NCBI GenBank assembly: GCA_964507605.1
Contig: CAZDQA010000001.1
Location: forward strand, 1 to 40,060
Reading direction: 5' to 3'
DNA length: 40,060 bases
From: an uncultured Pseudomonadales bacterium
GTDB taxonomy: Bacteria > Patescibacteriota > Microgenomatia > UBA1400 > CG1-02-47-37
This document shows, one piece after another, positions 329-38,747 of this stretch (within the stretch, counting starts at the first letter, position 1; every line of letters starts with the position of its first letter). Under the pieces are notes generated by a model. That model had not been told where the DNA came from. It worked only from the letters and a program-made list of their open reading frames with translations, and did not search any database. A program made the translations under genes and the position numbers.

Positions 329-2479
329 ATGGGTATTAAAAGCAAAACCGTTGTTATCAATGGTCAAACTATCACTTTGGAAATCGGCCGTTATGCTGAA
401 CAAGCCACTGCCGCTGTTTTGGCTAAAGCCGGGGATACCGTCGTCCTGGTTACTGTCGTTTCCGGTAAAGAAATTCCGGCCCTGGGCTATTTTCCTTTAA
501 CCGTGGAATATCAGGAAAAACTGTTTGCTTCCGGGATTATTAAAGGTTCCCGCTGGGTAAAGCGCGAAGGCCGGCCCACCGACGAAGCGATTTTAAAAGC
601 CCGGTTGATCGATCGTTCCATTCGCCCCCTGTTTCCCGAAGGCTATATGAAAGAAGTTCAGGTTATTGCCACCGTTTTATCTTATGACTCGACGACCGAT
701 CCGGAAATCTTAAGTTTAATCGCCGCTTCGGCGGCTTTAAGCCTGTCTTCCATTCCCTGGAATGGCCCGCTCGGAGCGGTTCGCCTGAAAAGCGCCAAAC
801 TGGATTTGGTTGTTTCCGGTTCTGCCGAAGCGATTGTCATGGTGGAGGCCGGCGCCCACGAAGCCAGCGAAGCGGAAGTTTTGCAAGCCATGTCCCAAGG
901 CCACGACGAGATTAAAAAAGTTATTAAAGTCATCGAAGAATTAGTTAAAGAAGCCGGTCAAAAGAAAGAAGAGTTTGTTGAAGAAAAAATCAACGTGGAT
1001 ATTAAAAAACAGATTTTAGCTAAAACTAAATCTTCAATTGACGATTTGATTGCCAGATTAAAAACTGCCACTCATGAAAAAGCCATGGATTTGTCAGAGA
1101 TTCAGGCCGCGGCCAAAGAAGAATTACCGGAACTTGATCCGAAAATTATTAACCTCGTCACCGAAGACTACTTAAAAACAACTTTGCGGCATACTGTTTT
1201 TGCCAAGAAAATTCGGCCTGATGGCCGTAAGCCCGATGAAATTCGGCCAATTACCTGTGAGGTTAGCGTTTTACCCCGCACTCACGGCTCGGCCATGTTT
1301 AAGCGTGGTGCCACTCAGGCAGTGACCGTCACCACCTTAGGTTCGCCCAGTTTGGAGCAGTTAATTGAAGATTTAGAGGGTGAGACTTCCAAGCGCTACA
1401 TTCATCACTACGAATTCCCTCCTTTTTCGGTCGGCGAAGCCGGCCGGATCGGTTATCCTTCCCGCCGGGAAATCGGCCACGGCGCTCTGGCTGAACGGGC
1501 GCTGGAACCCATGATTCCTGATGAAAACCTTTTTCCTTATACTATCCGCGTGGTTTCGGAAATTATGTCTTCTAATGGCTCTACTTCCATGGCCTCGGTT
1601 TGCGGCTCAACTTTATCCTTAATGGACGCCGGCGTGCCTTTAATTAAGCCGGTGGCCGGTATTGCCATGGGGCTCATGGTTGATGGTAAAGATTATGTGG
1701 TTTTAACCGATATTCAGGGTGCGGAAGATCATTTGGGCGATATGGACTTTAAGGTTGCCGGCACGGTTGACGGTATTACCGCTCTGCAGATGGATATTAA
1801 GATTGCCGGCGTGACTCAAGAAATTTTGGCAAAAGCCCTGGATAAGGCCAAGGTTGCTCGCTTGTCGATTATGGAAAAAATGCAGGCCGCGCTTGCCCAG
1901 CCCCGCACCCAGGTTTCCCAATATGCTCCTAAAATTAAAACTCTTAATATTCCGGTCGATAAAATCGGGGATTTAATCGGTCCCGGCGGCCGGATAATTA
2001 AAAAGATTATCAAAGACAGCGGCTGTGAAGTCGATGTTGATGATGACGGCCGCGTCGTCGTTACCGGGACTGACCAGGCCAAGCTGGCAGAAGCCTTAAA
2101 GCAAATTGACGGTTTGACCCGCGAATTTAAACCAGGCGAAGAGTTTGACGGAAAAGTCGTCCGGGTGGAAGCCTACGGCGCTTTTGTGGAGTTGATGCCC
2201 GGCCGCGACGGTTTAGTCCATGTTTCCCGTCTCTCTACCAGCTATGTGGCTGACCCGAATACAATTGTTCACTTGGGCGATACGCTTCATGTCCGCGTGC
2301 GCGAGATCGACGACCAGGGCCGGGTTAGTTTAACTACTTTAACTCCGGAACAGGAACAGCAGGCGGCCCAAAACCGTCCGTCTCGCCCCGGTGGTTTCTC
2401 CCCTCGCCCCGGTGGTTTTAATGGTCGTCCTCCTTTCCGTCGCCCCGGCGGCGGTCAGCGCTACTCCGGCAGAAGATAA
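329..2479 (+). CDS. pnp: Polyribonucleotide nucleotidyltransferase (PNPase) with a Pro/Gly/Arg-rich C-terminal tail
   Basis: 716 aa with two RNase PH domains (HGSAMFKRGATQ; GSTSMASVCGSTLSLMDAGVP; DHLGDMDFKVAGT), a KH domain (IGPGGRIIKKI) and an S1 domain (GKVVRVEAYGAFVEL). rpsO-pnp synteny supports the call. Confidence 0.95.
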   Translation: MGIKSKTVVINGQTITLEIGRYAEQATAAVLAKAGDTVVLVTVVSGKEIPALGYFPLTVEYQEKLFASGIIKGSRWVKREGRPTDEAILKARLIDRSIRPLFPEGYMKEVQVIATVLSYDSTTDPEILSLIAASAALSLSSIPWNGPLGAVRLKSAKLDLVVSGSAEAIVMVEAGAHEASEAEVLQAMSQGHDEIKKVIKVIEELVKEAGQKKEEFVEEKINVDIKKQILAKTKSSIDDLIARLKTATHEKAMDLSEIQAAAKEELPELDPKIINLVTEDYLKTTLRHTVFAKKIRPDGRKPDEIRPITCEVSVLPRTHGSAMFKRGATQAVTVTTLGSPSLEQLIEDLEGETSKRYIHHYEFPPFSVGEAGRIGYPSRREIGHGALAERALEPMIPDENLFPYTIRVVSEIMSSNGSTSMASVCGSTLSLMDAGVPLIKPVAGIAMGLMVDGKDYVVLTDIQGAEDHLGDMDFKVAGTVDGITALQMDIKIAGVTQEILAKALDKAKVARLSIMEKMQAALAQPRTQVSQYAPKIKTLNIPVDKIGDLIGPGGRIIKKIIKDSGCEVDVDDDGRVVVTGTDQAKLAEALKQIDGLTREFKPGEEFDGKVVRVEAYGAFVELMPGRDGLVHVSRLSTSYVADPNTIVHLGDTLHVRVREIDDQGRVSLTTLTPEQEQQAAQNRPSRPGGFSPRPGGFNGRPPFRRPGGGQRYSGRR

Positions 2480-3670: not shown

Positions 3671-3696
3671 ACCTGCAAGGAACATCCTTGTAGGCC
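3671..3696. repeat. REP-like hairpin copy H1
   Basis: a-CCTGCAAGG-aacat-CCTTGTAGG-cc. The stem is 9 bp with one G:T at stem position 4. It lies between the J-domain gene and the ICMT-like gene. Confidence 0.7.
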
Positions 3697-4205: not shown

Positions 4206-4230
4206 ACCTTCAGGGATCAACCCTGTAGGC
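4206..4230. repeat. REP-like hairpin copy H2
   Basis: a-CCTTCAGGG-atcaa-CCCTGTAGG-c, starting 6 nt after the ICMT-like stop codon. Confidence 0.7.
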
Positions 4231-4629: not shown

Positions 4630-5102
4630 AAATAAATATTCGCCGGGCTGATAAATCAGACGCAATCTTACTCCAGGATTTAAACCGTAAAATTATGGTT
4701 AACAATGTTCAATACGACCCTCGTTTCAATCCAAATTGGGAACAAACAGATTACGGCCGAAGTTTTTTTGAAGATCGATGCACGCAGCCGAATTGGTATA
4801 CCATTATTGCCGAAGCAGACGGGAAACCAATTGGTTATTTAAACGGATCAATTGATAATTTTGGCTATCGTTATCCTCAACTTCAGAAAGTCGCCGTAAT
4901 CGAAAACGTGGGAGTGATTCCGGAATACCAAAATAAAGGCATTGGTAAATTATTAATGGAAGATTTTAAAAAGTGGGCTAAAGAAAATAAAGCAATCCAA
5001 ATTCAACTAACCAGTTTTTCTAAAAATACCCAGGCCTTAGATTGGTATAAAAAATTAGGCTTTGAGCCGTCAGATATTATTTTACAAAAAGATATTAAGT
5101 AA
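4626..5102 (+). CDS. GNAT-family N-acetyltransferase
   Basis: 158 aa. The acetyl-CoA binding motif is VIPEYQNKGIGKLLM. Its start overlaps the previous stop (ATGA), indicating translational coupling. Confidence 0.8.
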   Translation: MKINIRRADKSDAILLQDLNRKIMVNNVQYDPRFNPNWEQTDYGRSFFEDRCTQPNWYTIIAEADGKPIGYLNGSIDNFGYRYPQLQKVAVIENVGVIPEYQNKGIGKLLMEDFKKWAKENKAIQIQLTSFSKNTQALDWYKKLGFEPSDIILQKDIK

Positions 5103-5127
5103 CCTACAGGATCCGACCCTGTAGGTT
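5101..5127. repeat. REP-like hairpin copy H3, between and overlapping convergent genes
   Basis: AACCTACAGG-atccgac-CCTGTAGGTT, a perfect 10-bp stem. It contains the last two bases of the GNAT TAA stop and encodes the last 8 codons plus the stop of the minus-strand kinase. Confidence 0.75.
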
Positions 5128-30390: not shown

Positions 30391-30894
30391 ATGATTCTCC
30401 AATCCAAACCCTTTAAAATCTTCACCCTTGTTTTAGCCGTCACCTTTTACCTCTTGGCTTTTGTCGTTGCCTTTAAACCGGAGCCGTTTTTGCGCTTTGG
30501 CTACTGGGGGATTTTTGCTTTTAACTTAATTGGACCGGGCACTTTTTTAATTCCTGTTGCCAGCCGTCACTTTCTGGTGCTTGGCGTCGCTTTAGCCACC
30601 AGTCTGGGTATGGCTATTAATGACTCGGTGTCCTGGCTGGCCGGTAAAAACGGGGACATTGTTTTTCCTCGTGGCCGGCGGGTCGCCCGCATCGAAGCCG
30701 CGATTAAAAAATACGGCCCCTTTGCTCTGTTCTTTTGGGCGATTATCCCTTTTCCCTATGACTTTATTGCCGTTATTGCCGGCTATCTCAAACTTCCCTT
30801 TAAGCGCTTTTTAATCCCCACCTTTCTCGGCCGGCTAATAAGATTTCTCTTAATGGGCTTCGGCATCGTCGCCATCTGGGGCAAAGTTATCTGA
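30391..30894 (+). CDS. Small polytopic membrane protein, VTT/DedA (YqaA-like) family candidate
   Basis: 167 aa with ~5 TM segments. The pattern GPGTFLIP...NDSVSWLAGK...FALFFWAIIPFPYDFIAVIAGYL resembles the DedA/YqaA re-entrant motif region. The family call is tentative. Confidence 0.5.
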   Translation: MILQSKPFKIFTLVLAVTFYLLAFVVAFKPEPFLRFGYWGIFAFNLIGPGTFLIPVASRHFLVLGVALATSLGMAINDSVSWLAGKNGDIVFPRGRRVARIEAAIKKYGPFALFFWAIIPFPYDFIAVIAGYLKLPFKRFLIPTFLGRLIRFLLMGFGIVAIWGKVI

Positions 30895-30962
30895 TTTTTT
30901 CTTCTTTATAACGATTTATAACTTTTATGATTTTTATAATTTTTATGTTTTAAACTTTTTTG

Positions 30963-30971
30963 TGCTAAACT
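30963..30971 (+). promoter_or_regulatory. Extended -10 promoter (TGcTAAACT), leaderless spacing
   Basis: TAAACT at 30966-30971 and ATG at 30978, a 6-nt gap. Confidence 0.4.
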
Positions 30972-30977
30972 TAAATC

Positions 30978-31706
30978 ATGGAACCAATCCCGCCAACGGC
31001 GATTCCTCCCCAGCCTCCCATTCCTCCCGTCCCGCCCCCACCGTCGGTTCCGCCCGTTATGCCCCCACCCCCTCCCAAGAAAAAATCCTTTGCCTGGCTA
31101 ATTATCTTGATAATCTTTTTACTTCTTGCCTCCACCGGCGTTTTGGCCTATCAGTACTATCAGCTTAAAACTCAAATAGCCGCCCCTACCCCCAATCCGT
31201 CTCTCACTCCTTCTCCAACTTTAAACCAAGTTATCTCACCAGAACTAACAGCTGAACAAGATGCAACCCTTGACACAACTGCCAACTGGAAAACATATAA
31301 TAATACCTTTTATTCTTTTCGGATAGATTACCCGGTTAGGTTTGAGATTGTTGAAAAAACCAAACGCGAAGATTACTATGACACACTCGCCACATTAACA
31401 TCATCATTCAAAGAATCGATTACCCTCAAAGCAATACATGATATTGATATCTATGAAAAAAATGGGCCAGAAATGGTGGCAGAGCGGGAAGTAATGGACA
31501 GCGGGTTTATATATAATATTACTACCACTAAAATCGGTGATTATTTTGCGGCCATCACTACTTTTGACAACAACCCCGATAAAAAATCTCCTACCATCAC
31601 TATTGCCCACCCCAGTAAGAATCTTTTTATAGTTATTGACATTAACACCGACCTTTCTCGAGTCGAGTTTGACCAAATCCTCGCCACCTTTAAATTCACC
31701 AACTAA
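30978..31706 (+). CDS. Hypothetical surface protein with a Pro-rich cytoplasmic N-terminus, TM anchor and extracytoplasmic domain
   Basis: 242 aa. MEPIPPTAIPPQPPIPPVPPPP...KKKSFAWLIILIIFLLL, then a W-x-TY...YP domain ending FDQILATFKFTN. It is a paralog of the next gene. Confidence 0.7.
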   Translation: MEPIPPTAIPPQPPIPPVPPPPSVPPVMPPPPPKKKSFAWLIILIIFLLLASTGVLAYQYYQLKTQIAAPTPNPSLTPSPTLNQVISPELTAEQDATLDTTANWKTYNNTFYSFRIDYPVRFEIVEKTKREDYYDTLATLTSSFKESITLKAIHDIDIYEKNGPEMVAEREVMDSGFIYNITTTKIGDYFAAITTFDNNPDKKSPTITIAHPSKNLFIVIDINTDLSRVEFDQILATFKFTN

Positions 31707-31709
31707 TTT

Positions 31710-32840
31710 ATGGACAACCCACCTATTCAACCACCAATTCCTCCCACCCCCCTCGTCTCGCCGGAGCCCCCCCAGAAAAAATCCCTTGCCTGGCTGATTA
31801 TTCCTCTGCTGATCTTTCTTTTAGCCTTCGGCGGCTACTTTGTTATCCAAATTAATAAATTCAAACAACAACTTAACCAGCCGACGTCTACTGCTGCCCC
31901 CAGCCCGGTTGTTGTTTTACCCTCGCTTTCACCCGATCTCACTGCCGATTGGCAAACCTACACCAATCAAAAACAGAGCTACTCTCTTAAATATCCGACT
32001 TCCTGGCAGATTAACGAAACCGGCGCCACGGTCGACATTAACAATAAACTTACCCTTGCTAAAGATAACTACATTATTACCATTTATGCCAACATTCAGG
32101 GCATTGGGGGAACGGCCAAACAAGTTCCCTCCATCCCGATTACTGTCGCCGGTTTAAATTTATTCAAAAGAGACATCGGTGACAATCTTTATGAAAACAC
32201 CGGCTCTTTTGAAATCAGCGCCAGCGACTCCAGCCCGACCTTTAAGTATCAAGACAAAACTTACGAAATTTATCTCACTTACCCGTTAGCGGAAAAGGGG
32301 ACCCAAGCCTATTTAGCCAACCTGCAAACTTTCGACCTCATCCTCTCCACCTTTAAATTTGTCGATAGTATCGAGCCAGAATCATCTCCATCAACGCCAT
32401 TAGCAAAAATCCCGACGATATCCACCGACAACTGGAAGAGTGCCAGTAATAACGGAGTTCAATTTAAAATTCCCCCGGAAGCTACTTGCAATGATAATCA
32501 AGCTTGCACCTTAATATCTTGGACTTCTGAATATCAGGGAAATACGCTTTATCACAATATTCGCGTTGAGGTAAAAGATTATCTTGGAGGCTCAAGGAGA
32601 GAACAATTTTATCAAAACACTAAACCGGAATGTCATGATATTTATCAAGAAGCCAGTTTTGGCCCGGTTATAGCCCTGCAAATTGCCATTGACGGCGGTT
32701 GGTGCCAAGGTGGTGGTGGAGGCATTGTCACGGTTATTGGCAACAAATTAGTTATTGTCCACAATCTTTTTTATAACCTGGAAACAAAAGTTATCGATCG
32801 TTGGGACGTTCGGGATACGCTTGTATCAACTTTAAATTAA
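31710..32840 (+). CDS. Hypothetical surface protein, a paralog of 30978..31706 with an extra C-terminal Cys-containing domain
   Basis: 376 aa. MDNPPIQPPIPPTP...KKSLAWLIIPLLIFLL, DWQTYTNQKQSYSLKYP and FDLILSTFKFVD. Confidence 0.7.
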   Translation: MDNPPIQPPIPPTPLVSPEPPQKKSLAWLIIPLLIFLLAFGGYFVIQINKFKQQLNQPTSTAAPSPVVVLPSLSPDLTADWQTYTNQKQSYSLKYPTSWQINETGATVDINNKLTLAKDNYIITIYANIQGIGGTAKQVPSIPITVAGLNLFKRDIGDNLYENTGSFEISASDSSPTFKYQDKTYEIYLTYPLAEKGTQAYLANLQTFDLILSTFKFVDSIEPESSPSTPLAKIPTISTDNWKSASNNGVQFKIPPEATCNDNQACTLISWTSEYQGNTLYHNIRVEVKDYLGGSRREQFYQNTKPECHDIYQEASFGPVIALQIAIDGGWCQGGGGGIVTVIGNKLVIVHNLFYNLETKVIDRWDVRDTLVSTLN

Positions 32841-32842
32841 CC

Positions 32843-32989
32843 ATGGACCAACCAATCCCTTCCACCCCCTTTGTCTCGCCGAAGCCTACGGCGAAGGCGG
32901 AGCCGGTTTTTACCCAAACCCCGGTCGCGCCGGAACCGCCTAAAAAATCCTCCAAATGGTTGATTAACCTGCAGGGTCCGACCCTGTAG
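32843..32989 (+). pseudogene. 5' fragment of a third Pro-rich anchored paralog, cut off at hairpin H4
   Basis: MDQPIPSTPFVSPKP...PPKKSSKWLI matches the N-terminus of both neighbours up to the first residues of the TM helix. It then reads NLQGPTL* out of the hairpin repeat. Confidence 0.65.
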
Positions 32990-32992
32990 GCC
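32967..32992. repeat. REP-like hairpin copy H4
   Basis: a-CCTGCAGGG-tccga-CCCTGTAGG-cc followed by TTATTTTT. It abuts the stop codon of minus-strand gene 32993..33475. Confidence 0.75.
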
Positions 32993-33475
32993 TTATTTTT
33001 CCTGACACTCTATTCTTGCTTCAACAGTAAATTTACTATCCACCCTCAGGAATATATCTGCCGGCGTACCTAATTCTTCAAAGATGATTAACGCCTCTTT
33101 TTCAAATCCTAAACCCTCGTCTGGGATAACCATTACTCCCGGCGCTGCCTGTATTGGTGAACCACGTCGAATCAAACATATTTCATCTTCACCTTTTCTC
33201 ATAAAAACTTCTGCTCTGCCACAGCTGACAACTGCGACTGTGGGTTTTCCGCTTGCAATCTTTTTATATTTAGCAGGATTAGGGTAAATAAAAACGCCTT
33301 CGTCTTGTCTGTTTGGATCGCCGGGGGCGGTTAAAAATTCCCCTTCTTGTGTTGGTTTCCAAATTGGCTGCCTAAGTTTATCGGTGATTTCTATTGATTG
33401 CCAGGCTGGTCTTCGTTCTCCCTCAACCCCTCTTTGTCCTGCCGCTTCTCTTATTGAAACTTGAATAGATACCAT
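32993..33475 (-). CDS. Hypothetical protein (cassette gene 1)
   Basis: 160-aa ORF preceded by the shared promoter/stem-loop module. It shares short motifs (PIWKP; GRAEVF..KG) with the 142-aa cassette protein. I recognise no family. Confidence 0.6.
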   Translation of the reverse strand: MVSIQVSIREAAGQRGVEGERRPAWQSIEITDKLRQPIWKPTQEGEFLTAPGDPNRQDEGVFIYPNPAKYKKIASGKPTVAVVSCGRAEVFMRKGEDEICLIRRGSPIQAAPGVMVIPDEGLGFEKEALIIFEELGTPADIFLRVDSKFTVEARIECQEK

Positions 33476-33492
33476 AAATTTTTTACTAAAAA

Positions 33493-33528
33493 TCTCTGCT
33501 TCGGGCAGAGATAATTAAAATTATAACA
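33493..33528 (-). promoter_or_regulatory. Shared module copy a: extended -10 promoter plus 19-nt stem-loop
   Basis: On the coding strand: TGtTATAAT (complement of 33520-33528), 8 nt, then TCTCTGCCCGAAGCAGAGA (33511-33493), 17 A/T-rich nt and the ATG at 33475. Confidence 0.55.
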
Positions 33529-33546
33529 TTTCCCTGACAAAATACT

Positions 33547-33572
33547 ACCTACAAGGTCCAACCTTGCAGGCC
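33547..33572. repeat. REP-like hairpin copy H5
   Basis: a-CCTACAAGG-tccaa-CCTTGCAGG-cc followed by TTTTATTTTTT. It ends 2 nt before the stop of minus-strand gene 33575..33784. Confidence 0.75.
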
Positions 33573-33574
33573 TT

Positions 33575-33784
33575 TTATTTTTTCTTCTCCGGTTGGTGGA
33601 TAAAAAACATTCTTTCCGTGTCAATTTCCGGAATCACCACTGCCAAAGGGTTATTGTCTGCCCCCCCCACAACCTGAGCTTTTAACTCTTTAATTGCCAC
33701 ATAAGGTTCATCATCTTCATGATTGCTGTAATTAATCATTGTTCCCGGCTTAATCGTGATTGTTTTTATTTCTGGTTGGGTCAT
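33575..33784 (-). CDS. Hypothetical small protein
   Basis: 69-aa ORF. On the coding strand TAAAAT lies 5 nt before the ATG, which is leaderless-type spacing. No stem-loop module and no recognisable family. Confidence 0.4.
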   Translation of the reverse strand: MTQPEIKTITIKPGTMINYSNHEDDEPYVAIKELKAQVVGGADNNPLAVVIPEIDTERMFFIHQPEKKK

Positions 33785-33810
33785 AAGCTATTTTACTCTA
33801 TTTTTCCCGC

Positions 33811-33839
33811 TTGCTTTTCCCAAAGAGAGAGAGTAATAT
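33811..33839 (+). promoter_or_regulatory. Promoter of small ORF copy 1 (TTGCTT-N17-TAATAT) with (AG)5 in the spacer
   Basis: TTGCTT at 33811-33816, (AG)5 at 33824-33833, TAATAT at 33834-33839 and ATG at 33848, an 8-nt gap. Confidence 0.5.
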
Positions 33840-33847
33840 TCTGGTCA

Positions 33848-34072
33848 ATGGGATTAGAAATAGGAATACAACAAGCAAAGATGGGCGCCGTTGGTGATGA
33901 GTTTAAAACAGCCACTCCGCCCCCGCCATTAGCTCCAAGAGAGTTAACACCTGCGCAAATTGTTGCCGGTCCTGATATTGGTCAAATGCAAGATTTAGCC
34001 GGCCAAATCGGCCAGTTAGCTCAGGCCCCCCAAAAAGTTGAAGCCCCTGCAACCCCCACTCCAGCTCAATAA
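33848..34072 (+). CDS. Small Pro/Gln/Ala-rich protein, family copy 1
   Basis: 74 aa: MGLEIGIQQAKMGAVGDEFKTATPPPPLAPRELTPAQIVAGPDIGQMQDLAGQIGQLAQAPQKVEAPATPTPAQ. The same frame stays open in the diverged third copy. Confidence 0.5.
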   Translation: MGLEIGIQQAKMGAVGDEFKTATPPPPLAPRELTPAQIVAGPDIGQMQDLAGQIGQLAQAPQKVEAPATPTPAQ

Positions 34073-34108
34073 TTTCCTTAAACTTTTTCCTAGAGAGATT
34101 TATCATGA

Positions 34109-34134
34109 TCCTTCAAGGTCCGTCCCTGAAGGCC
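34109..34134. repeat. REP-like hairpin copy H6 (also a plausible intrinsic terminator for the + small ORF)
   Basis: t-CCTTCAAGG-tccgt-CCCTGAAGG-cc followed by TTATTTTATT. It lies between convergent genes. Confidence 0.75.
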
Positions 34135-34139
34135 TTATT

Positions 34140-34568
34140 TTATTCGCTGAAAGCGCCCACAATTTTGATTTCTTTTACCGGTTGGCCGTCAACTTTTATA
34201 GTTAATCCCATAGTGGCGCCGGAATGGAAAAATATTTCTGCTCTGCCTCCTTTAGCGCTGGCGCGGTCGTTCACGATGGTGACTGGGCCAATGGTTTCTG
34301 GTTCATCTATAGTAATTAATCCCTTTTCTCCCCAAAACACTTCAGCCCCCCCACTGCTGTTGATGCCAATGCCTCCGAATGGTTTAGTATTAAAATTAAA
34401 ATAAACCCCGTCATACTTATTGCCGTTTTCCGGCTTCCAAAGGGGAATGTCTGTATTATAAAATCCATGGGGGAATTTAGGATGTTCTGTCCAGCCTTCA
34501 TTTGGTCTTGGTTCACGCTCCTGGCTTGAAATGGGATCTCTGGTAAAAATCTGTAAATCCAAATTCAT
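34140..34568 (-). CDS. Hypothetical protein (cassette gene 2, copy 1)
   Basis: 142 aa from the ATG at 34568 (MNLDLQIF...). The TTG-extended 152-aa version in the ORF track would translate the stem-loop itself. It has an internal motif repeat GGAEVFWGEKG / GGRAEIFFHSG. No recognisable family. Confidence 0.6.
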   Translation of the reverse strand: MNLDLQIFTRDPISSQEREPRPNEGWTEHPKFPHGFYNTDIPLWKPENGNKYDGVYFNFNTKPFGGIGINSSGGAEVFWGEKGLITIDEPETIGPVTIVNDRASAKGGRAEIFFHSGATMGLTIKVDGQPVKEIKIVGAFSE

Positions 34569-34576
34569 ATAAAAAA

Positions 34577-34630
34577 TCTCTGCTTCGGGCAGAGACAAAT
34601 GTAATATACCTTAGTCTCGACAAATGTCAA
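34577..34630 (-). promoter_or_regulatory. Shared module copy b: TTGACA-N16-TATATT promoter plus 19-nt stem-loop
   Basis: On the coding strand: TTGACA (complement of 34625-34630), TATATT (34603-34608), 7 nt, then TCTCTGCCCGAAGCAGAGA (34595-34577), 8 nt and the ATG. Confidence 0.6.
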
Positions 34631-34640
34631 GGTTTTGTGA

Positions 34641-34666
34641 ACCTTCAGGGTTGATCCCTGTAGGCC
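34641..34666. repeat. REP-like hairpin copy H7
   Basis: a-CCTTCAGGG-ttgat-CCCTGTAGG-cc. It sits between the back-to-back minus and plus promoters. Confidence 0.75.
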
Positions 34667-34697
34667 TTGCTTTTCCCAGAGAGAGAGAGAGTAATAT
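34667..34697 (+). promoter_or_regulatory. Promoter of small ORF copy 2 (TTGCTT-N19-TAATAT) with (AG)7 in the spacer
   Basis: TTGCTT at 34667-34672, (AG)7 at 34678-34691, TAATAT at 34692-34697 and ATG at 34706. Confidence 0.45.
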
Positions 34698-34705
34698 TCT
34701 GGTCA

Positions 34706-34930
34706 ATGAGATTAGAAATCGGCATACAACAAGCAAAGCTGGGCGCCGTTGGTGATGAGTTTAAAACAGCCACTCCGCCCCCGCCGTTAGCTCCAAGAGA
34801 GTTAACACCTGCGCAAATTGTTGCCGGTCCTGATATTGGTCAAATGCAAGATTTAGCCGGCCAAATCGGCCAGTTAGCTCAGGCCCCCCAAAAAGTTGAA
34901 GCCCCTGCAACCCCCACTCCAGCTCAATAA
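34706..34930 (+). CDS. Small Pro/Gln/Ala-rich protein, family copy 2
   Basis: 74 aa. It differs from copy 1 only at residues 2 and 12 (MRLEIGIQQAKL...). Confidence 0.5.
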   Translation: MRLEIGIQQAKLGAVGDEFKTATPPPPLAPRELTPAQIVAGPDIGQMQDLAGQIGQLAQAPQKVEAPATPTPAQ

Positions 34931-34966
34931 TTTCCTTAAACTTTTTCCTAGAGAGATTTATCATGA

Positions 34967-34992
34967 TCCTTCAAGGTCCGTCCCTGAAGGCC
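34967..34992. repeat. REP-like hairpin copy H8 (identical to H6)
   Basis: Lies within the 858-bp duplicate. Confidence 0.75.
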
Positions 34993-34997
34993 TTATT

Positions 34998-35426
34998 TTA
35001 TTCGCTGAAAGCGCCCACAATTTTGATTTCTTTTACCGGTTGGCCGTCAACTTTTATAGTTAATCCCATAGTGGCGCCGGAATGGAAAAATATTTCTGCT
35101 CTGCCTCCTTTAGCGCTGGCGCGGTCGTTCACGATGGTGACTGGGCCAATGGTTTCTGGTTCATCTATAGTAATTAATCCCTTTTCTCCCCAAAACACTT
35201 CAGCCCCCCCACTGCTGTTGATGCCAATGCCTCCGAATGGTTTAGTATTAAAATTAAAATAAACCCCGTCATACTTATTGCCGTTTTCCGGCTTCCAAAG
35301 GGGAATGTCTGTATTATAAAATCCATGGGGGAATTTAGGATGTTCTGTCCAGCCTTCATTTGGTCTTGGTTCACGCTCCTGGCTTGAAATGGGATCTCTG
35401 GTAAAAATCTGTAAATCCAAATTCAT
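34998..35426 (-). CDS. Hypothetical protein (cassette gene 2, copy 2; identical to 34140..34568)
   Basis: Identical translation in the ORF track. Confidence 0.6.
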   Translation of the reverse strand: MNLDLQIFTRDPISSQEREPRPNEGWTEHPKFPHGFYNTDIPLWKPENGNKYDGVYFNFNTKPFGGIGINSSGGAEVFWGEKGLITIDEPETIGPVTIVNDRASAKGGRAEIFFHSGATMGLTIKVDGQPVKEIKIVGAFSE

Positions 35427-35434
35427 ATAAAAAA

Positions 35435-35488
35435 TCTCTGCTTCGGGCAGAGACAAATGTAATATACCTTAGTCTCGACAAATGTCAA
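35435..35488 (-). promoter_or_regulatory. Shared module copy c (identical to copy b)
   Basis: Lies within the 858-bp duplicate. Confidence 0.6.
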
Positions 35489-35498
35489 GGTTTTGTGA

Positions 35499-35524
35499 AC
35501 CTTCAGGGTTGATCCCTGTAGGCC
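35499..35524. repeat. REP-like hairpin copy H9 (identical to H7)
   Basis: Lies within the 858-bp duplicate. Confidence 0.75.
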
Positions 35525-35555
35525 TTGCTTTTCCCAGAGAGAGAGAGAGTAATAT
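35525..35555 (+). promoter_or_regulatory. Promoter of small ORF copy 3 (identical to copy 2)
   Basis: TTGCTT, (AG)7 and TAATAT, with the ATG at 35564. Confidence 0.45.
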
Positions 35556-35563
35556 TCTGGTCA

Positions 35564-35791
35564 ATGAGATTAGAAATCGGCATACAACAAGCAAAGCTGG
35601 GCGCCGTTGGTGATGAGTTCAAAACAGACACCCCGCCGCCGCCCTTACTTCCAAGAGAACCGTTAACCCCTGGGCAAATAGTTGCCGGCCCCGACATTAA
35701 CCAAATGCAAGAAGCGGTTGGTTATGCGGGGTGGTTACGTCAGACCCTTAAAAAAGTTAAAGCCGCTCTAACCCCTACTCCAACTCAATAA
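35564..35791 (+). CDS. Small Pro-rich protein, diverged family copy 3
   Basis: 75 aa: MRLEIGIQQAKLGAVGDEFKTDTPPPPLLPREPLTPGQIVAGPDINQMQEAVGYAGWLRQTLKKVKAALTPTPTQ. The N-terminal 21 aa, the IVAGPDI block and the TPTPxQ end are conserved while the middle is replaced. Confidence 0.5.
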   Translation: MRLEIGIQQAKLGAVGDEFKTDTPPPPLLPREPLTPGQIVAGPDINQMQEAVGYAGWLRQTLKKVKAALTPTPTQ

Positions 35792-35859
35792 TTTTCCTAA
35801 ACTTCCTAAGTTACCTAGTTTTCTTCTTTATAACCGTATCGCTATTTTTCTCCTTTTAA

Positions 35860-36438
35860 TTATACCTCGGGGTTTAAAAGATAAGGTCCATCAACAATTT
35901 CTATCATCATTTGATTTAAAGGGTACATTAGGTCTTCCCAAACCCGCATTCCTCGTAGCACTGGCATTCCTGTTTGTGGATTTGTTGGCGGATCCAAAAA
36001 CAGCACGATCTCTCCTTCTTCGGAAGGCGTGAGTCTTTCTGTCCGTGAAAATCTCCATTTACCATCTTCCAGGCAAGCTTCAACGAAAAAACCACCTGGG
36101 TCTGTGGACGCGCCAATCAGTCTCTGTGAATCTTTTGTTATCGTTACTAAAGGTTTGTCAGCTTCATTTTTTATGACGACTTCGAGATTGCCGTCTCTTT
36201 CCCTATACTGCAATCGATTAACGTTGGCCATTAAAGCGCTCTGATCATCGCTCTCCTGAACCAAGGCCATTATTGGTAACAAGCCGCCTTCTTGGGTACC
36301 AAAGGCTAATTGGATCAAGCGATCGGGGAACACCAACCCTTTATTAGAAAGTTCCTCAATTAGCATGGCTACTCCCGGCATTATCCGGTCCAGCTGCATC
36401 GGTCTCGGCTGTTTATCAATAGAGGATTCTGGTAGCAT
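35860..36438 (-). CDS. Hypothetical protein (cassette gene 3)
   Basis: 192-aa ORF preceded by the shared promoter/stem-loop module. No recognisable family. Confidence 0.6.
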   Translation of the reverse strand: MLPESSIDKQPRPMQLDRIMPGVAMLIEELSNKGLVFPDRLIQLAFGTQEGGLLPIMALVQESDDQSALMANVNRLQYRERDGNLEVVIKNEADKPLVTITKDSQRLIGASTDPGGFFVEACLEDGKWRFSRTERLTPSEEGEIVLFLDPPTNPQTGMPVLRGMRVWEDLMYPLNQMMIEIVDGPYLLNPEV

Positions 36439-36465
36439 AATCTCGTTTTATTTTTTTACTAAAAA

Positions 36466-36519
36466 TCTCTGCTTCGGGCAGAGACAATGTTAATATATCC
36501 TCTTCTCGACAAATGTCAA
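36466..36519 (-). promoter_or_regulatory. Shared module copy d: TTGACA-N16-TATATT promoter plus 19-nt stem-loop
   Basis: On the coding strand: TTGACA (complement of 36514-36519), TATATT (36492-36497), 7 nt, then TCTCTGCCCGAAGCAGAGA (36484-36466), 27 nt and the ATG at 36438. Confidence 0.6.
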
Positions 36520-36534
36520 GTTTTTGTATATAAT
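36506..36534 (+). promoter_or_regulatory. Candidate fusA-tuf promoter (TCGACA-N17-TATAAT), interdigitated with minus-strand module d
   Basis: TCGACA at 36506-36511 and TATAAT at 36529-36534. The -35 region overlaps the -35 of the opposing promoter. Confidence 0.45.
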
Positions 36535-36571
36535 CCGCTTACTATTAATTAACTCTATTTCTCTTAAAGCC

Positions 36572-36598
36572 ATCGCTTCCTCAAGAGAAGCGATTTTT
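36572..36598 (+). terminator. Terminator-like hairpin plus T-run 10 nt upstream of the fusA start
   Basis: ATCGCTTC-ctcaaga-GAAGCGAT followed by TTTTAT. Confidence 0.45.
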
Positions 36599-36608
36599 AT
36601 TGCCATCT

Positions 36609-38747
36609 ATGGCTGAACAATCCGCCACTGCCAAAAAGCGCCACGTGCCTCTGGATAAAATCCGGAATATCGGCATTATTGCCCATATTGATGCCGGCAA
36701 AACTACTACCACCGAGCGGATTCTTTTCTATACCGGAAAAACCTACAAACTTGGTGATATTGACGAAGGCACCACCCAGATGGACTGGATGGCCCAGGAG
36801 CGCGAGCGGGGCATTACCATTGTCTCTGCCGCCACCACTGCTTTCTGGACGCAAATTCTTCCCGGCGCCGTTCCCCATGAAGAATACCGCATTAACATTA
36901 TCGACACTCCCGGCCATGTGGACTTTACCGCCGAAGTCGAACGCTCCCTCCGCGTTTTAGACGGGGGGATTACTGTTTTAGATGCCGAAGAAGGCGTCCA
37001 GTCCCAATCAGAAACCGTCTGGCACCAGGCCGATAAATACAATGTTCCCCGTCTTTGTTTTGTTAATAAAATGGACAAGCTTGGGGCTGATTTTTTAGCC
37101 ACGGTTCAGGATATTAAAGACCGCCTCGGCGCCAATCCGGCCATTATGGCCCTGCCGATCGGGGTAGAGTCTTCGTTTAAGGGGATAGTTTTGCTCTTAG
37201 ATCAAAAAGCGATGATTTGGCATTCAGATGAAACCGGTGCTGAATATGACATTACCGATATTCCCCAAGACATGGCCGATCAGGTTAAAGAATACCGGGC
37301 CAAATTAATCGAACAAATTTCCGAGCATGACGACGCTTTGTTAAACAAATATTTAAACGGCGAAGAACCGACCGTGACGGAGCTAAAAACCGTTTTAAGA
37401 AAAGCCGTCATTGCCTACAAACTGGTGCCGATTTTTTGCGGTTCGTCTTTAAGAAACAAAGGCGTTCAGCCCTTGCTTGATGCCGTGGTTGAGTATCTGC
37501 CCAGCCCGGTCGATCTGAAAGAAGTCAAAGGCACCCACCCCAAAACTAATGCCGAAGAACTCCGCCTCTGCAACAATGAAGCCCCTTTCTGCGGTCTGGC
37601 TTTCAAAATTCAATCCGACCCGCACGTCGGCCGCTTAATCTATGTCCGCATTTACTCCGGCACCCTTAAATCCGGCAGCTATGTTTACAACTCTACCAAA
37701 GATAAAAAAGAACGTGTCGGCCGCCTGCTGTTAATGCATGCCAACGACCGCGAAGAAATTCCCGAAGCCTTTTCCGGGGAAATCGTCGCCCTGGTCGGTT
37801 TAAAAGACACCACCACCGGCAATACTTTAACTGATGATAGCCACCCGATTATTTTGGAAGGGATTACTTTTACCGAACCGGTCATCTCGTTGGCCATTGA
37901 GCCCAAAACCAAAGCCGACCAGGAAAAAATGGGTTTTGCCTTAAAGCGGCTTTCTGAAGAAGATCCTACTTTTACAATTAAATCCGATCCGGAAACCGGC
38001 CAAACCATTATTTCCGGCATGGGCGAACTGCACTTGGAAATTTTGGTCGACCGGATGAAGCGGGAATTTAAAGTCGAAGCCAACACCGGCCAACCCCAGG
38101 TTGCTTACAAAGAAACTATCAAAAAAATCGCCGAAGCCGAAGGTAAATACATTCGCCAATCCGGCGGCCGCGGCCAGTACGGCCACTGTTTCTTAAGGAT
38201 TGAGCCCAAAAGCCGCGGTGAGGGTTTTGAATTTGTTTCCGAAATCACCGGCGGCACCATTCCCCGGGAGTTTATTCCTCCGATCGGCAAGGGCGCCAAA
38301 GAAGCCGCGGAAAACGGCGTGATTGCCGGCTTTCCTTTAGTCGATGTCAAAGTGGCGGTTTACGACGGTTCTTTCCATGATGTTGACTCTTCGGAAATTG
38401 CCTTCAAAATTGCCGGTTCTATCGCTTTCCAGTCAGCGGTCAAACAGGCTGACCCGATTCTTTTGGAGCCGATCATGAAACTCGAAGTTTCTTCCCCCGA
38501 AGAATTTATGGGTGAGATTATCGGCGATCTGTCCAAAAAACGGGCCCGCATCTTAGGCACTAACAAGCGCGGCCGGATATTAATCATCAATGCCGAAGCC
38601 CCCTTGGCAGAAATGCCCCAATATGCTACTATTCTCCGTTCCATGACTCAAGGCCGGGCCAGCTTTTACATGGAGCCGTCCCACTACGAGGAAGTGCCCA
38701 ATAACATTGCCCAAAAAATTATTGCTAAATCTGCCAAAAACAGTTAA
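36609..38747 (+). CDS. fusA: Elongation factor G
   Basis: [51 protein letters not shown] and NKMD, plus the domain IV/V blocks. I prefer the ATG at 36609 over the TTG at 36600. Confidence 0.95.

Follow-up and report, generated by a model that had tools for sequence, protein, structure and literature searches.

What kind of signal is carried by a 19-nucleotide (nt) inverted repeat that recurs between a promoter and the start codon of several neighbouring genes? The question is raised by a stretch of 40,060 nt (contig CAZDQA010000001.1, referred to here as the window), in which four minus-strand genes encoding proteins of 192, 142 (two copies) and 160 amino acids (aa) lie next to fusA, each behind a promoter and the same hairpin. 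Judged from relatives of the elongation factor G (EF-G) encoded in the window (78-96% identity), the organism is a Candidatus Beckwithbacteria (Microgenomates; Patescibacteria, also termed CPR, the candidate phyla radiation). An earlier note on this DNA had proposed either a 5' stem-loop acting in the mRNA or an operator acting in the DNA, in front of a modular set of different genes. According to the analysis reported here, the module is most likely a promoter plus 5' mRNA leader that has been passed on along with a single lineage-specific gene family and multiplied by duplication in place. The hairpin itself is tentatively read, with a confidence somewhat short of even, as a 5'-terminal protective stem-loop followed by a U-rich start region devoid of a Shine-Dalgarno (SD) sequence.

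Structure and occurrence of the module

The 19-mer TCTCTGCCCGAAGCAGAGA was found exactly four times in the window, always on the minus strand (33493-33511, 34577-34595, 35435-35453 and 36466-36484), against 0.01 copies expected by chance, and no additional copies were detected in the 40-kb window at up to three mismatches. Three copies are preceded by a TTGACA-N16-TATATT promoter, matching 11 of 12 consensus positions, with 7 nt between the end of the -10 box and the 19-mer; the fourth, in front of the 160-aa gene, has the extended -10 box TGTTATAAT and a gap of 8 nt. The base immediately 5' of each 19-mer is a purine (G or A) that pairs with the first U 3' of the stem, resulting in a hairpin with an 8-bp stem (4 G-C pairs) and a 5-nt loop, with a folding energy of -10.7 kcal/mol when folded alone and a z-score of -5.4. 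In all four copies, a T5-6 tract abuts the 3' side of the stem and is followed by an A/U-rich stretch; the distance from the 19-mer to the ATG is 8, 8, 17 or 27 nt, and GGAGG is absent from all four leaders. The hairpin was predicted in every leader-plus-start segment that was folded (-10.5 to -15.2 kcal/mol), and the AUG, 6-30 nt 3' of the stem, was unpaired in most predicted folds, that of the 142-aa leader placing it at the beginning of a weak downstream helix. Both the existence of the module and the order of its parts, as described in the earlier note, were thus borne out, although that description missed the terminator-like shape, the plus-strand genes alternating with the cassettes and the fusA leader, all of which are considered below.

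All four modules and their genes lie on the minus strand. In the module of the 192-aa gene, the promoter (36492-36519) consists of TTGACA (36514-36519), a 16-nt spacer with the conserved motif TTTGTCGAG, and TATATT (36492-36497). It is followed by the hairpin GUCUCUGC-CCGAA-GCAGAGAU (36465-36485, 8-bp stem, predicted start at G36485), a U-run at 36461-36465, a 27-nt A/U-rich leader and the orphan gene itself (35860-36438). The two 142-aa family genes (copy 1, 34140-34568; copy 2, 34998-35426) are identical and encode an all-beta protein with a predicted beta-sandwich. Their TTGACA-N16-TATATT promoters are located at 34603-34630 and 35461-35488, and their hairpins with U6 at 34571-34596 (hairpin 34576-34596, U6 34571-34576) and 35429-35454 (hairpin 35434-35454, U6 35429-35434). 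The 160-aa gene (32993-33475), a paralogue of the 142-aa gene, is preceded by a truncated module copy, in which the extended -10 box TGTTATAAT (33520-33528) has a palindrome resembling repetitive extragenic palindromic (REP) elements in place of the -35 box, and the hairpin (33492-33512, with an A-U closing pair) together with its U5 spans 33488-33512. A 152-aa open reading frame (ORF) with an in-frame TTG start upstream of the hairpin was discarded, since that stretch contains stop codons in the other copies.

Exact-19-mer scans of 185,579 species genomes and of metagenomes recovered the module in one species-genome locus (L005) and in seven metagenomic loci (L007, L011, L012, L014, L018, L021 and L023). 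Look-ups that made no use of the 19-mer also led to it, starting either from the family proteins (L025-32, L039, L040, L041, L042-44, L045 and L046) or from EF-G (L034 and L036). About 15 other 19-mer matches (in Ruminococcaceae, Anaerolineales and an archaeon) were set aside as chance occurrences, their flanks placing them inside unrelated coding regions. At least 12 related contigs carry the module, as a rule in a single copy each, and always with the same layout: CTTGAC(A/T)TTTGTCGAG, a -10 box, 7-8 nt, the hairpin, U5-6 and the ATG of a family member. In most loci with enough flanking sequence, it stands back-to-back with the fusA promoter. Genes of the 160-aa type have their own module in the window, L039, L040 and L046, and where such a gene is second in an operon (L018, L034 and L041) it is preceded by an SD sequence or by nothing recognisable.

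The representative Beckwithbacteria metagenome-assembled genome (MAG) behind L005 contains a single module copy in the whole assembly, and the hairpin is absent from the relatives that lack the cassette (L035, L037 and L038, with 94% EF-G identity in L037 and L038). Because of these two results, the element is taken to be tied to this gene family and not to be a generic element of untranslated regions, in keeping with the interpretation of the earlier note. No module was found in phage, plasmid and viral-contig collections, and a phage or plasmid origin was dropped for that reason.

From paired bases to a candidate role

Nine distinct contigs were found without recourse to the 19-mer, five with the exact sequence and four with a variant, and pairing and conservation statistics were obtained from a 16-row alignment of module variants. 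A compensatory change from U-A to C-G at the stem base, accompanied by a new loop, was detected in L042-44 (CCTCTGC-TCTAA-GCAGAGG). A change from U-A to U.G in L040 (GCGGAGA) preserves pairing in the sense-strand RNA only, and L045 combines the same stem with the loop CCCAA. In L041 (TCTCTG-CCTAGA-CAGAGA), the stem of 6-7 bp has one pair fewer and the loop has 6 nt, so that the element measures 18 nt instead of 19 and the spacing between half-sites is shortened by 1 bp. Covariation amounts to a single compensatory pair and two changes of the wobble type, with a loop that varies. Standard pairs occupy 99.2% of the pair cells, versus 27-51% in slid controls, and the closing pair is G.U in 12 variants and A-U in 4.

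Column identity reaches 0.96-0.98 in the stem, 0.96-1.0 in the stem plus U-run and 0.93 in the loop, versus 0.60-0.63 in the discriminator and the non-functional spacer of the promoter. Conservation of the motif TTTGTCGAG in the spacer is 99%, and the promoter type of the 192-aa gene, containing this motif, is found in 15 of the 16 variants. The T-run is always located on the gene side of the hairpin. The distance from the -10 box to the stem is constant in the 16 variants, with a purine at the 7th or 8th nt, even though the sequence of this interval varies (identity 0.60). Since the stem and U-run are kept while the loop varies in sequence and length, and since the U.G wobble pairs in the sense strand only, the variants favour a sense-strand RNA hairpin over a dyad operator of fixed spacing. 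Selection on pairing, as expected for a maintained stable hairpin, is apparent, though the evidence is thin because few lineages contribute to it. Of the two possibilities raised in the earlier note, the RNA-level 5' stem-loop is the best reading, given the compensatory and wobble changes, the variable loop and the predicted start on the first paired base; the stem covariation that it had proposed to look for among homologous loci is there in that pairing is kept, but is thin.

From promoter geometry alone, the purine at which transcription would preferentially start, 7 or 8 nt past the -10 box, coincides with the closing pair in all 16 variants, and because the -10-to-stem distance is constant in every one of them, +1 is predicted to fall on this pair. 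A near-consensus sigma-70-type promoter would thus initiate at the purine of the closing pair of the 8-bp hairpin, giving a transcript without unpaired 5' nucleotides. Such a 5'-terminal stem-loop would block 5'-end-dependent decay, that is, the entry of an RppH-type pyrophosphohydrolase, RNase J or RNase E, and the blocked decay would lead to a long-lived, abundant mRNA. In turn, the unstructured U/A-rich stretch 3' of the stem would serve as an SD-independent ribosome landing site, with the ATG 6-30 nt downstream. We infer the transcription start, the stabilising effect and the role of the U-run in translation from the sequence.

This reading has precedents. RppH acts only where 2 or more nt at the 5' end are unpaired, and mRNA is stabilised by stem-loops at its 5' terminus (review PMC3997798, citing Emory et al. 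1992). As in the ompA and papA stabilisers of E. coli and those of the aprE type in B. subtilis, the hairpin described here would lie at or within a nucleotide of the 5' end, with an unstructured ribosome-binding region downstream, and such stem-loops are expected to block the entry of RppH, RNase E or RNase J (PMC3997798). Unlike in those cases, the transcript start is a prediction, an invariant U5-6 comes after the hairpin, an SD sequence is lacking, and the element occurs with a single orphan gene family of a single CPR lineage. A further likeness is offered by the start region of E. coli rpsA, which lacks an SD sequence and in which hairpins are separated by A/U-rich single strands. Here too, a hairpin and an A/U-rich single strand precede an SD-less AUG, but there is one hairpin rather than three, no sequence similarity is observed and the ribosome-recruiting role is putative.

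A natural remnant bears on the U-run. In L025 (5970-6003, plus strand), a second paralogue follows directly after the first as TAG-TTA-GCAGAGATTTTTTATG; GCAGAGAUUUUUUAUG is retained, so that only the 3' arm, the U-run and the ATG are present, without promoter or 5' arm. This remnant looks like a tandem-duplication scar with its junction inside the hairpin, or like a retained start context, and suggests that the U-run-ATG context may be useful for translation even where neither a hairpin nor a terminator can form. Regulation of translation by an RNA thermometer of the ROSE or fourU type was not supported, the AUG being free of sequestration in most folds and an SD sequence being absent; a small heat-shock protein controlled by such a thermometer was likewise rejected, as no HSP20 match was obtained. 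Base pairing between AGAGA and the 3' tail of 16S rRNA, in the manner of a pseudo-SD, was considered as well but not retained, the window containing no 16S rRNA gene.

Several observations weigh against a protective stem-loop. The start site is a prediction from promoter geometry. The covariation is thin, with a single compensatory pair confined to a single lineage and a score that 20 of 500 shuffled alignments equal or exceed, and the stem is conserved in sequence beyond what pairing would demand. A U5-6 tract abutting a GC-containing 8-bp stem has the shape of an intrinsic terminator, whereas a stabiliser needs no U-run, and variants with long leaders keep the U-run attached to the hairpin, 11-25 nt away from the ATG. 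Moreover, a perfect module persists in front of apparently broken genes in two lineages. In L005, L023 and L036, the cassette gene next to fusA has suffered an N-terminal deletion and a frameshift behind a perfect promoter, hairpin and U-run; in L021 (about 560-960, minus strand), a conserved Trp codon has changed from TGG to TAG behind a perfect module.

The fusA leader and competing explanations

SD sequences are nearly absent from the genes of the window, with AAGGAGG found at tuf (38779) only. In about 15 promoter-proximal genes, only 6-8 nt separate the ATG from a -10 box that is often TGn-extended, which corresponds to a leaderless layout, and operon-internal genes are preceded by A-rich sequence. 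The contrast between the cassettes and the other genes drawn in the earlier note holds for the presence of a leader, which is distinctive, but not for the lack of an SD sequence, which is the norm in this genome. In such an SD-poor and mostly leaderless genome, an mRNA with a leader must signal its start codon by other means, and its 5' end is exposed and in need of protection.

A second element of the same architecture was identified in front of fusA. The divergent fusA promoter (TCGACA-N17-TATAAT, 36506-36534, plus strand) stands back-to-back with the cassette promoter, and the TGTCGA in the spacer of the latter reads, on the opposite strand, as the fusA -35 box TCGACA. Downstream, the hairpin AUCGCUUCC-UCAAG-AGAAGCGAU and its U-run (36572-36608, plus strand) precede the fusA ATG at 36609. 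This order of hairpin, U5-7 and ATG was found in all ten sources examined (the window and nine loci), whether or not the cassette is present (L034, L035, L037, L038, L042, L021, L012, L036 and L025, the latter at 4778-4850 on the minus strand). The promoter lies about 60-75 nt upstream, the hairpin has 6-9 bp and the ATG often abuts the U-run; the stems fall into two classes, ATCGCTTC..GAAGCGAT and AAACTGC..GCAGTTT. When a covariance model of the cassette hairpin was run on the window, the fusA leader hairpin with its U-run was the next-best match after an opposite-strand echo of a cassette copy. The same model found the fusA leader in 8 of 16 loci searched, with scores of 17-22 bits, that of L034 being 14.1 bits (E-value 0.83). 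In about 120 kb, a hairpin with a U-run before an ATG was found at fusA and the cassette genes only. For the fusA-tuf-S10-spc string, this leader could act as an attenuator or as a start signal that replaces the SD sequence. The presence of a parallel hairpin-U-run-ATG at fusA, a gene that must be well expressed, counts in favour of the protective reading of the cassette hairpin.

The resemblance to terminators gives rise to a serious competing explanation, held somewhat less likely than the protective stem-loop, according to which the hairpin is a promoter-proximal intrinsic terminator or attenuator that stops a fraction of the polymerases at about +27, either fixed or dependent on a factor or nucleoside triphosphates, and so throttles a very strong promoter. 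As in Rho-independent terminators and leader attenuators, an 8-bp G-C-containing stem with a 5-nt loop is immediately followed by a U-tract, between promoter and ATG, and all four copies score as terminator-like for stem, loop and U-tract (8 pairs, 4 G-C, loop of 5, T-rich tail). All 16 variants have the U5-6, which remains next to the hairpin even in long leaders while the sequence beyond it varies, the loop sequence is free to vary, and the module persists before pseudogenised cassettes; the match of the cassette model to the fusA leader and the confinement of this shape to fusA and the cassette genes point in the same direction. Under the same explanation, the fusA leader hairpin would attenuate the fusA-tuf-S10-spc string, much like the attenuator controlled by L4 in the S10 leader of E. 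coli, and the sister element described here precedes fusA-tuf-S10. Unlike known leader attenuators, however, the element begins at the predicted +1, on the first stem base, which leaves no upstream RNA for an antiterminator or a sensing domain, and neither arm finds another pairing partner in the minimum-free-energy or centroid folds. Neither does a terminator have any obvious use for a fixed distance between the -10 box and the stem. Canonical hairpin-plus-U sites are not enriched and do not occur at gene ends (36 versus 28.7 +/- 5.9 expected in 20 kb), the remnant in L025 has a U-run and ATG behind a 3' arm that cannot form a hairpin, and efficient termination right at the start codon of the essential fusA would be costly.

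Readings at the DNA level fare worse. That the 7-5-7 palindrome at +2 to +20 binds a dimeric repressor, shutting the cassette promoter and perhaps fusA, is improbable, and so is a variant in which the near-palindrome CTTGACA-TT-TGTCGAG over both -35 boxes would be a joint site. A site over +1 is typical of repressors, the stem sequence is almost invariant (0.96-0.98) beyond what pairing explains, TTTGTCGAG is 99% conserved, and the L042 change is dyad-symmetric. Yet the conservation of TTTGTCGAG is accounted for by the -35 box (TCGACA) of the divergent back-to-back promoter, and a dyad site would not need the asymmetry of the gene-side T-run. The operator alternative of the earlier note is weakened by L041, where the half-site spacing is 1 bp shorter, and by L040, where one half-site is changed, as RNA pairing is kept in both and both genes are intact. 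Nor is any regulator gene conserved beside the module: the neighbours vary, and the island proteins gave no match to a DNA-binding domain in Pfam and NCBIfam scans. More improbable still is that the module is a recombination or mobility site, that is, a portable 5' junction (attC-like or a mobile-cassette end) used for cassette swapping. An unrelated 192-aa gene lies behind a leader, TTTTTAGTAAAAAAATAAA, that otherwise belongs to 160-type genes (window, L039 and L046), the duplication junction in L025 falls inside the hairpin, and the interval between S7 and fusA is variable, containing genes for toxin-antitoxin systems and, in a single relative, for an rve integrase. Against this, no recombinase was called in the module-bearing loci examined, the sole rve match being weak and located in the cassette-less L038, and neither terminal inverted repeats nor target duplications were seen. 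In addition, each cassette has its own promoter, the element is 5' rather than 3' of the genes, a contig normally has just one copy, none was found in the phage, plasmid and viral collections, and ordinary tandem duplication explains the array. An integron-type array of promoterless, attC-ended cassettes beside intI was excluded, since the cassettes have their own promoters and the repeat is 5' of the gene; the island is flanked by S12, the ORF at the S7 position, secreted PsbP-like proteins and EF-G.

No curated RNA family was matched, and the element is a lineage-restricted addition to the known kinds of 5' stabilisers and/or leader attenuators. Should it merely be a stabiliser hairpin inherited by duplication, it would represent ordinary biology. 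The more interesting residue is the pair of mirrored back-to-back promoters, each with its own hairpin-U-run-ATG, one directed at a translation-factor and ribosomal-protein string and the other at an orphan family. It is an unlikely idea that the hairpin-U-tract-AUG is an expression signal specific to the Beckwithbacteria and common to the fusA-tuf-S10-spc leader and the divergent cassette genes. It would act as a substitute for the SD helix or as a factor-dependent attenuator tying the orphan proteins to translation control, and perhaps also provide homology for placing different cassettes. If the protective reading is true, the module would be among very few defined cis-regulatory RNA elements in a lineage of the CPR for which the searches made returned no cultured representatives or transcript maps. 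It would also give the promoter, start site and leader design of highly expressed leadered genes in an otherwise leaderless, SD-free genome, and would mark a fast-evolving orphan family of proteins encoded next to fusA. In combination with the fusA leader, it would offer a testable case of translation start or transcription attenuation without an SD sequence.

Duplication, encoded proteins and the surrounding island

Positions 33929-34761 and 34787-35619 are identical at 100%, forming an 833-bp perfect tandem repeat with a period of 858 bp (33929-35619, no strand). Lying within it, the two 142-aa cassettes result from one very recent duplication and count as one observation. An independent Logan assembly (locus L033) breaks at this repeat. 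The modules of the 160- and 192-aa genes have a 37-nt block in common, with 97% identity. Because of the tandem repeat and this shared block, the four copies in the window are not four independent events; they are a local amplification of a normally single-copy element. Duplication of gene plus leader explains three of the four copies, the 192-aa gene being the sole unrelated passenger. The modularity claimed in the earlier note, with three different coding sequences behind one module, was overstated, since most of the sharing reflects this joint duplication. The 192-aa gene, whose leader is of the 160 type, looks like a replacement at the slot proximal to fusA.

Nor are the proteins of three kinds, as had been thought: those of 160 and 142 aa are paralogues (hhalign probability 98.8%, E-value 1.3e-16; hmmsearch E-value 7e-18), and only that of 192 aa is unrelated. 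The 160/142-aa family comprises 14 clusters among 5.8 billion, and the 192-aa protein is a near-orphan with 5 relatives in 1.84 billion representatives. The minus strand was confirmed as the coding strand by full-length homologues in other genomes and by a family structure model consisting of an all-beta domain (predicted local distance difference test, pLDDT, 78.5), and the plus-strand ORFs at 34105-34404 and 36029-36244 were rejected for lack of conservation elsewhere. A single-sequence AlphaFold model of the 192-aa protein reached a pLDDT of 37.6. Scans of all island proteins against Pfam, PHROGs, PADLOC and NCBIfam returned nothing meaningful. Foldseek searches of the PDB with the family model gave weak matches to immunoglobulin- or filamin-like beta-sandwiches only (TM-score 0.16-0.33, E-value > 0.1), and the sequence profile gave a single short repeat match in the PDB, to a lectin, and no convincing relative. 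With no convincing match in any of these resources, the immunity, effector or stress roles suggested earlier are unsupported.

The cassettes form part of an island within an ancestral str cluster, with the order rpoB-rpoC-S12-S7, two secreted PsbP-like proteins, island and fusA-tuf, where S7 is a 159-aa ORF assigned by its position in the cluster. The interval between S7 (rpsG) and fusA is a hypervariable island in Beckwithbacteria, which depending on the genome contains a VTT-domain protein, secreted PsbP-like proteins, HicAB, MazE-PIN, a DUF559 endonuclease, an rve integrase or orphan cassettes. Its positions are 30391-36608 in the window, 4846-9350 in L025, 3661-7000 in L034, 2066-7000 in L036, 4082-7000 in L037 and 1-1920 in L038. 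No tRNA or tmRNA was detected by a scan of the window, nor was a 16S rRNA gene found in it, and Rfam covariance models gave no match at gathering thresholds in the window and none at E <= 1 in the region 32800-36700.

A REP-like 23-nt palindrome, CCTnCAGGG-N5-CCCTGnAGG, flanks the cassette units and occurs in 9 copies in the window versus 0.03 expected (3672-3694, 4207-4229, 5103-5125, 32968-32990, 33548-33570, 34110-34132, 34642-34664, 34968-34990 and 35500-35522). It is intergenic, shows internal covariation, often has no T-run 3' and was also found in L014, L018, L037, L039 and L046. Its presence in these relatives and at 3672, 4207 and 5103 indicates a genome-wide REP-like or terminator element outside the module, and this lineage may use it as its standard terminator or insulator.

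On the minus strand between the 160-aa cassette and the first of the plus-strand genes, a 69-aa ORF (33575-33784) has a leaderless-type start without a hairpin; no homologue was found in any related locus or in the family library, and the ORF is regarded as a doubtful candidate gene. Alternating with the cassette genes, a small conserved plus-strand gene of about 74 aa (MxLEIGIQQAK...DIGQMQ) is present in three copies. It converges on the cassette genes and has a leaderless-type start. The first copy is located at 33848-34072 and the second at 34706-34930, and the third (35564-35791) is diverged, with a frame-keeping 3-nt indel. This gene is considered real because it accompanies the cassette in L014, L021, L025, L039 and L040. 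Its promoter reads TAATAT, 8 nt, ATG, and the spacer between the -35 and -10 boxes of the three copies contains an (AG)5 or (AG)7 repeat (33824-33833, 34678-34691 and 35536-35549). Depending on the number of AG units, the spacer measures about 17 or about 19-21 nt, and the repeat could act as a slipped-strand phase-variation switch.

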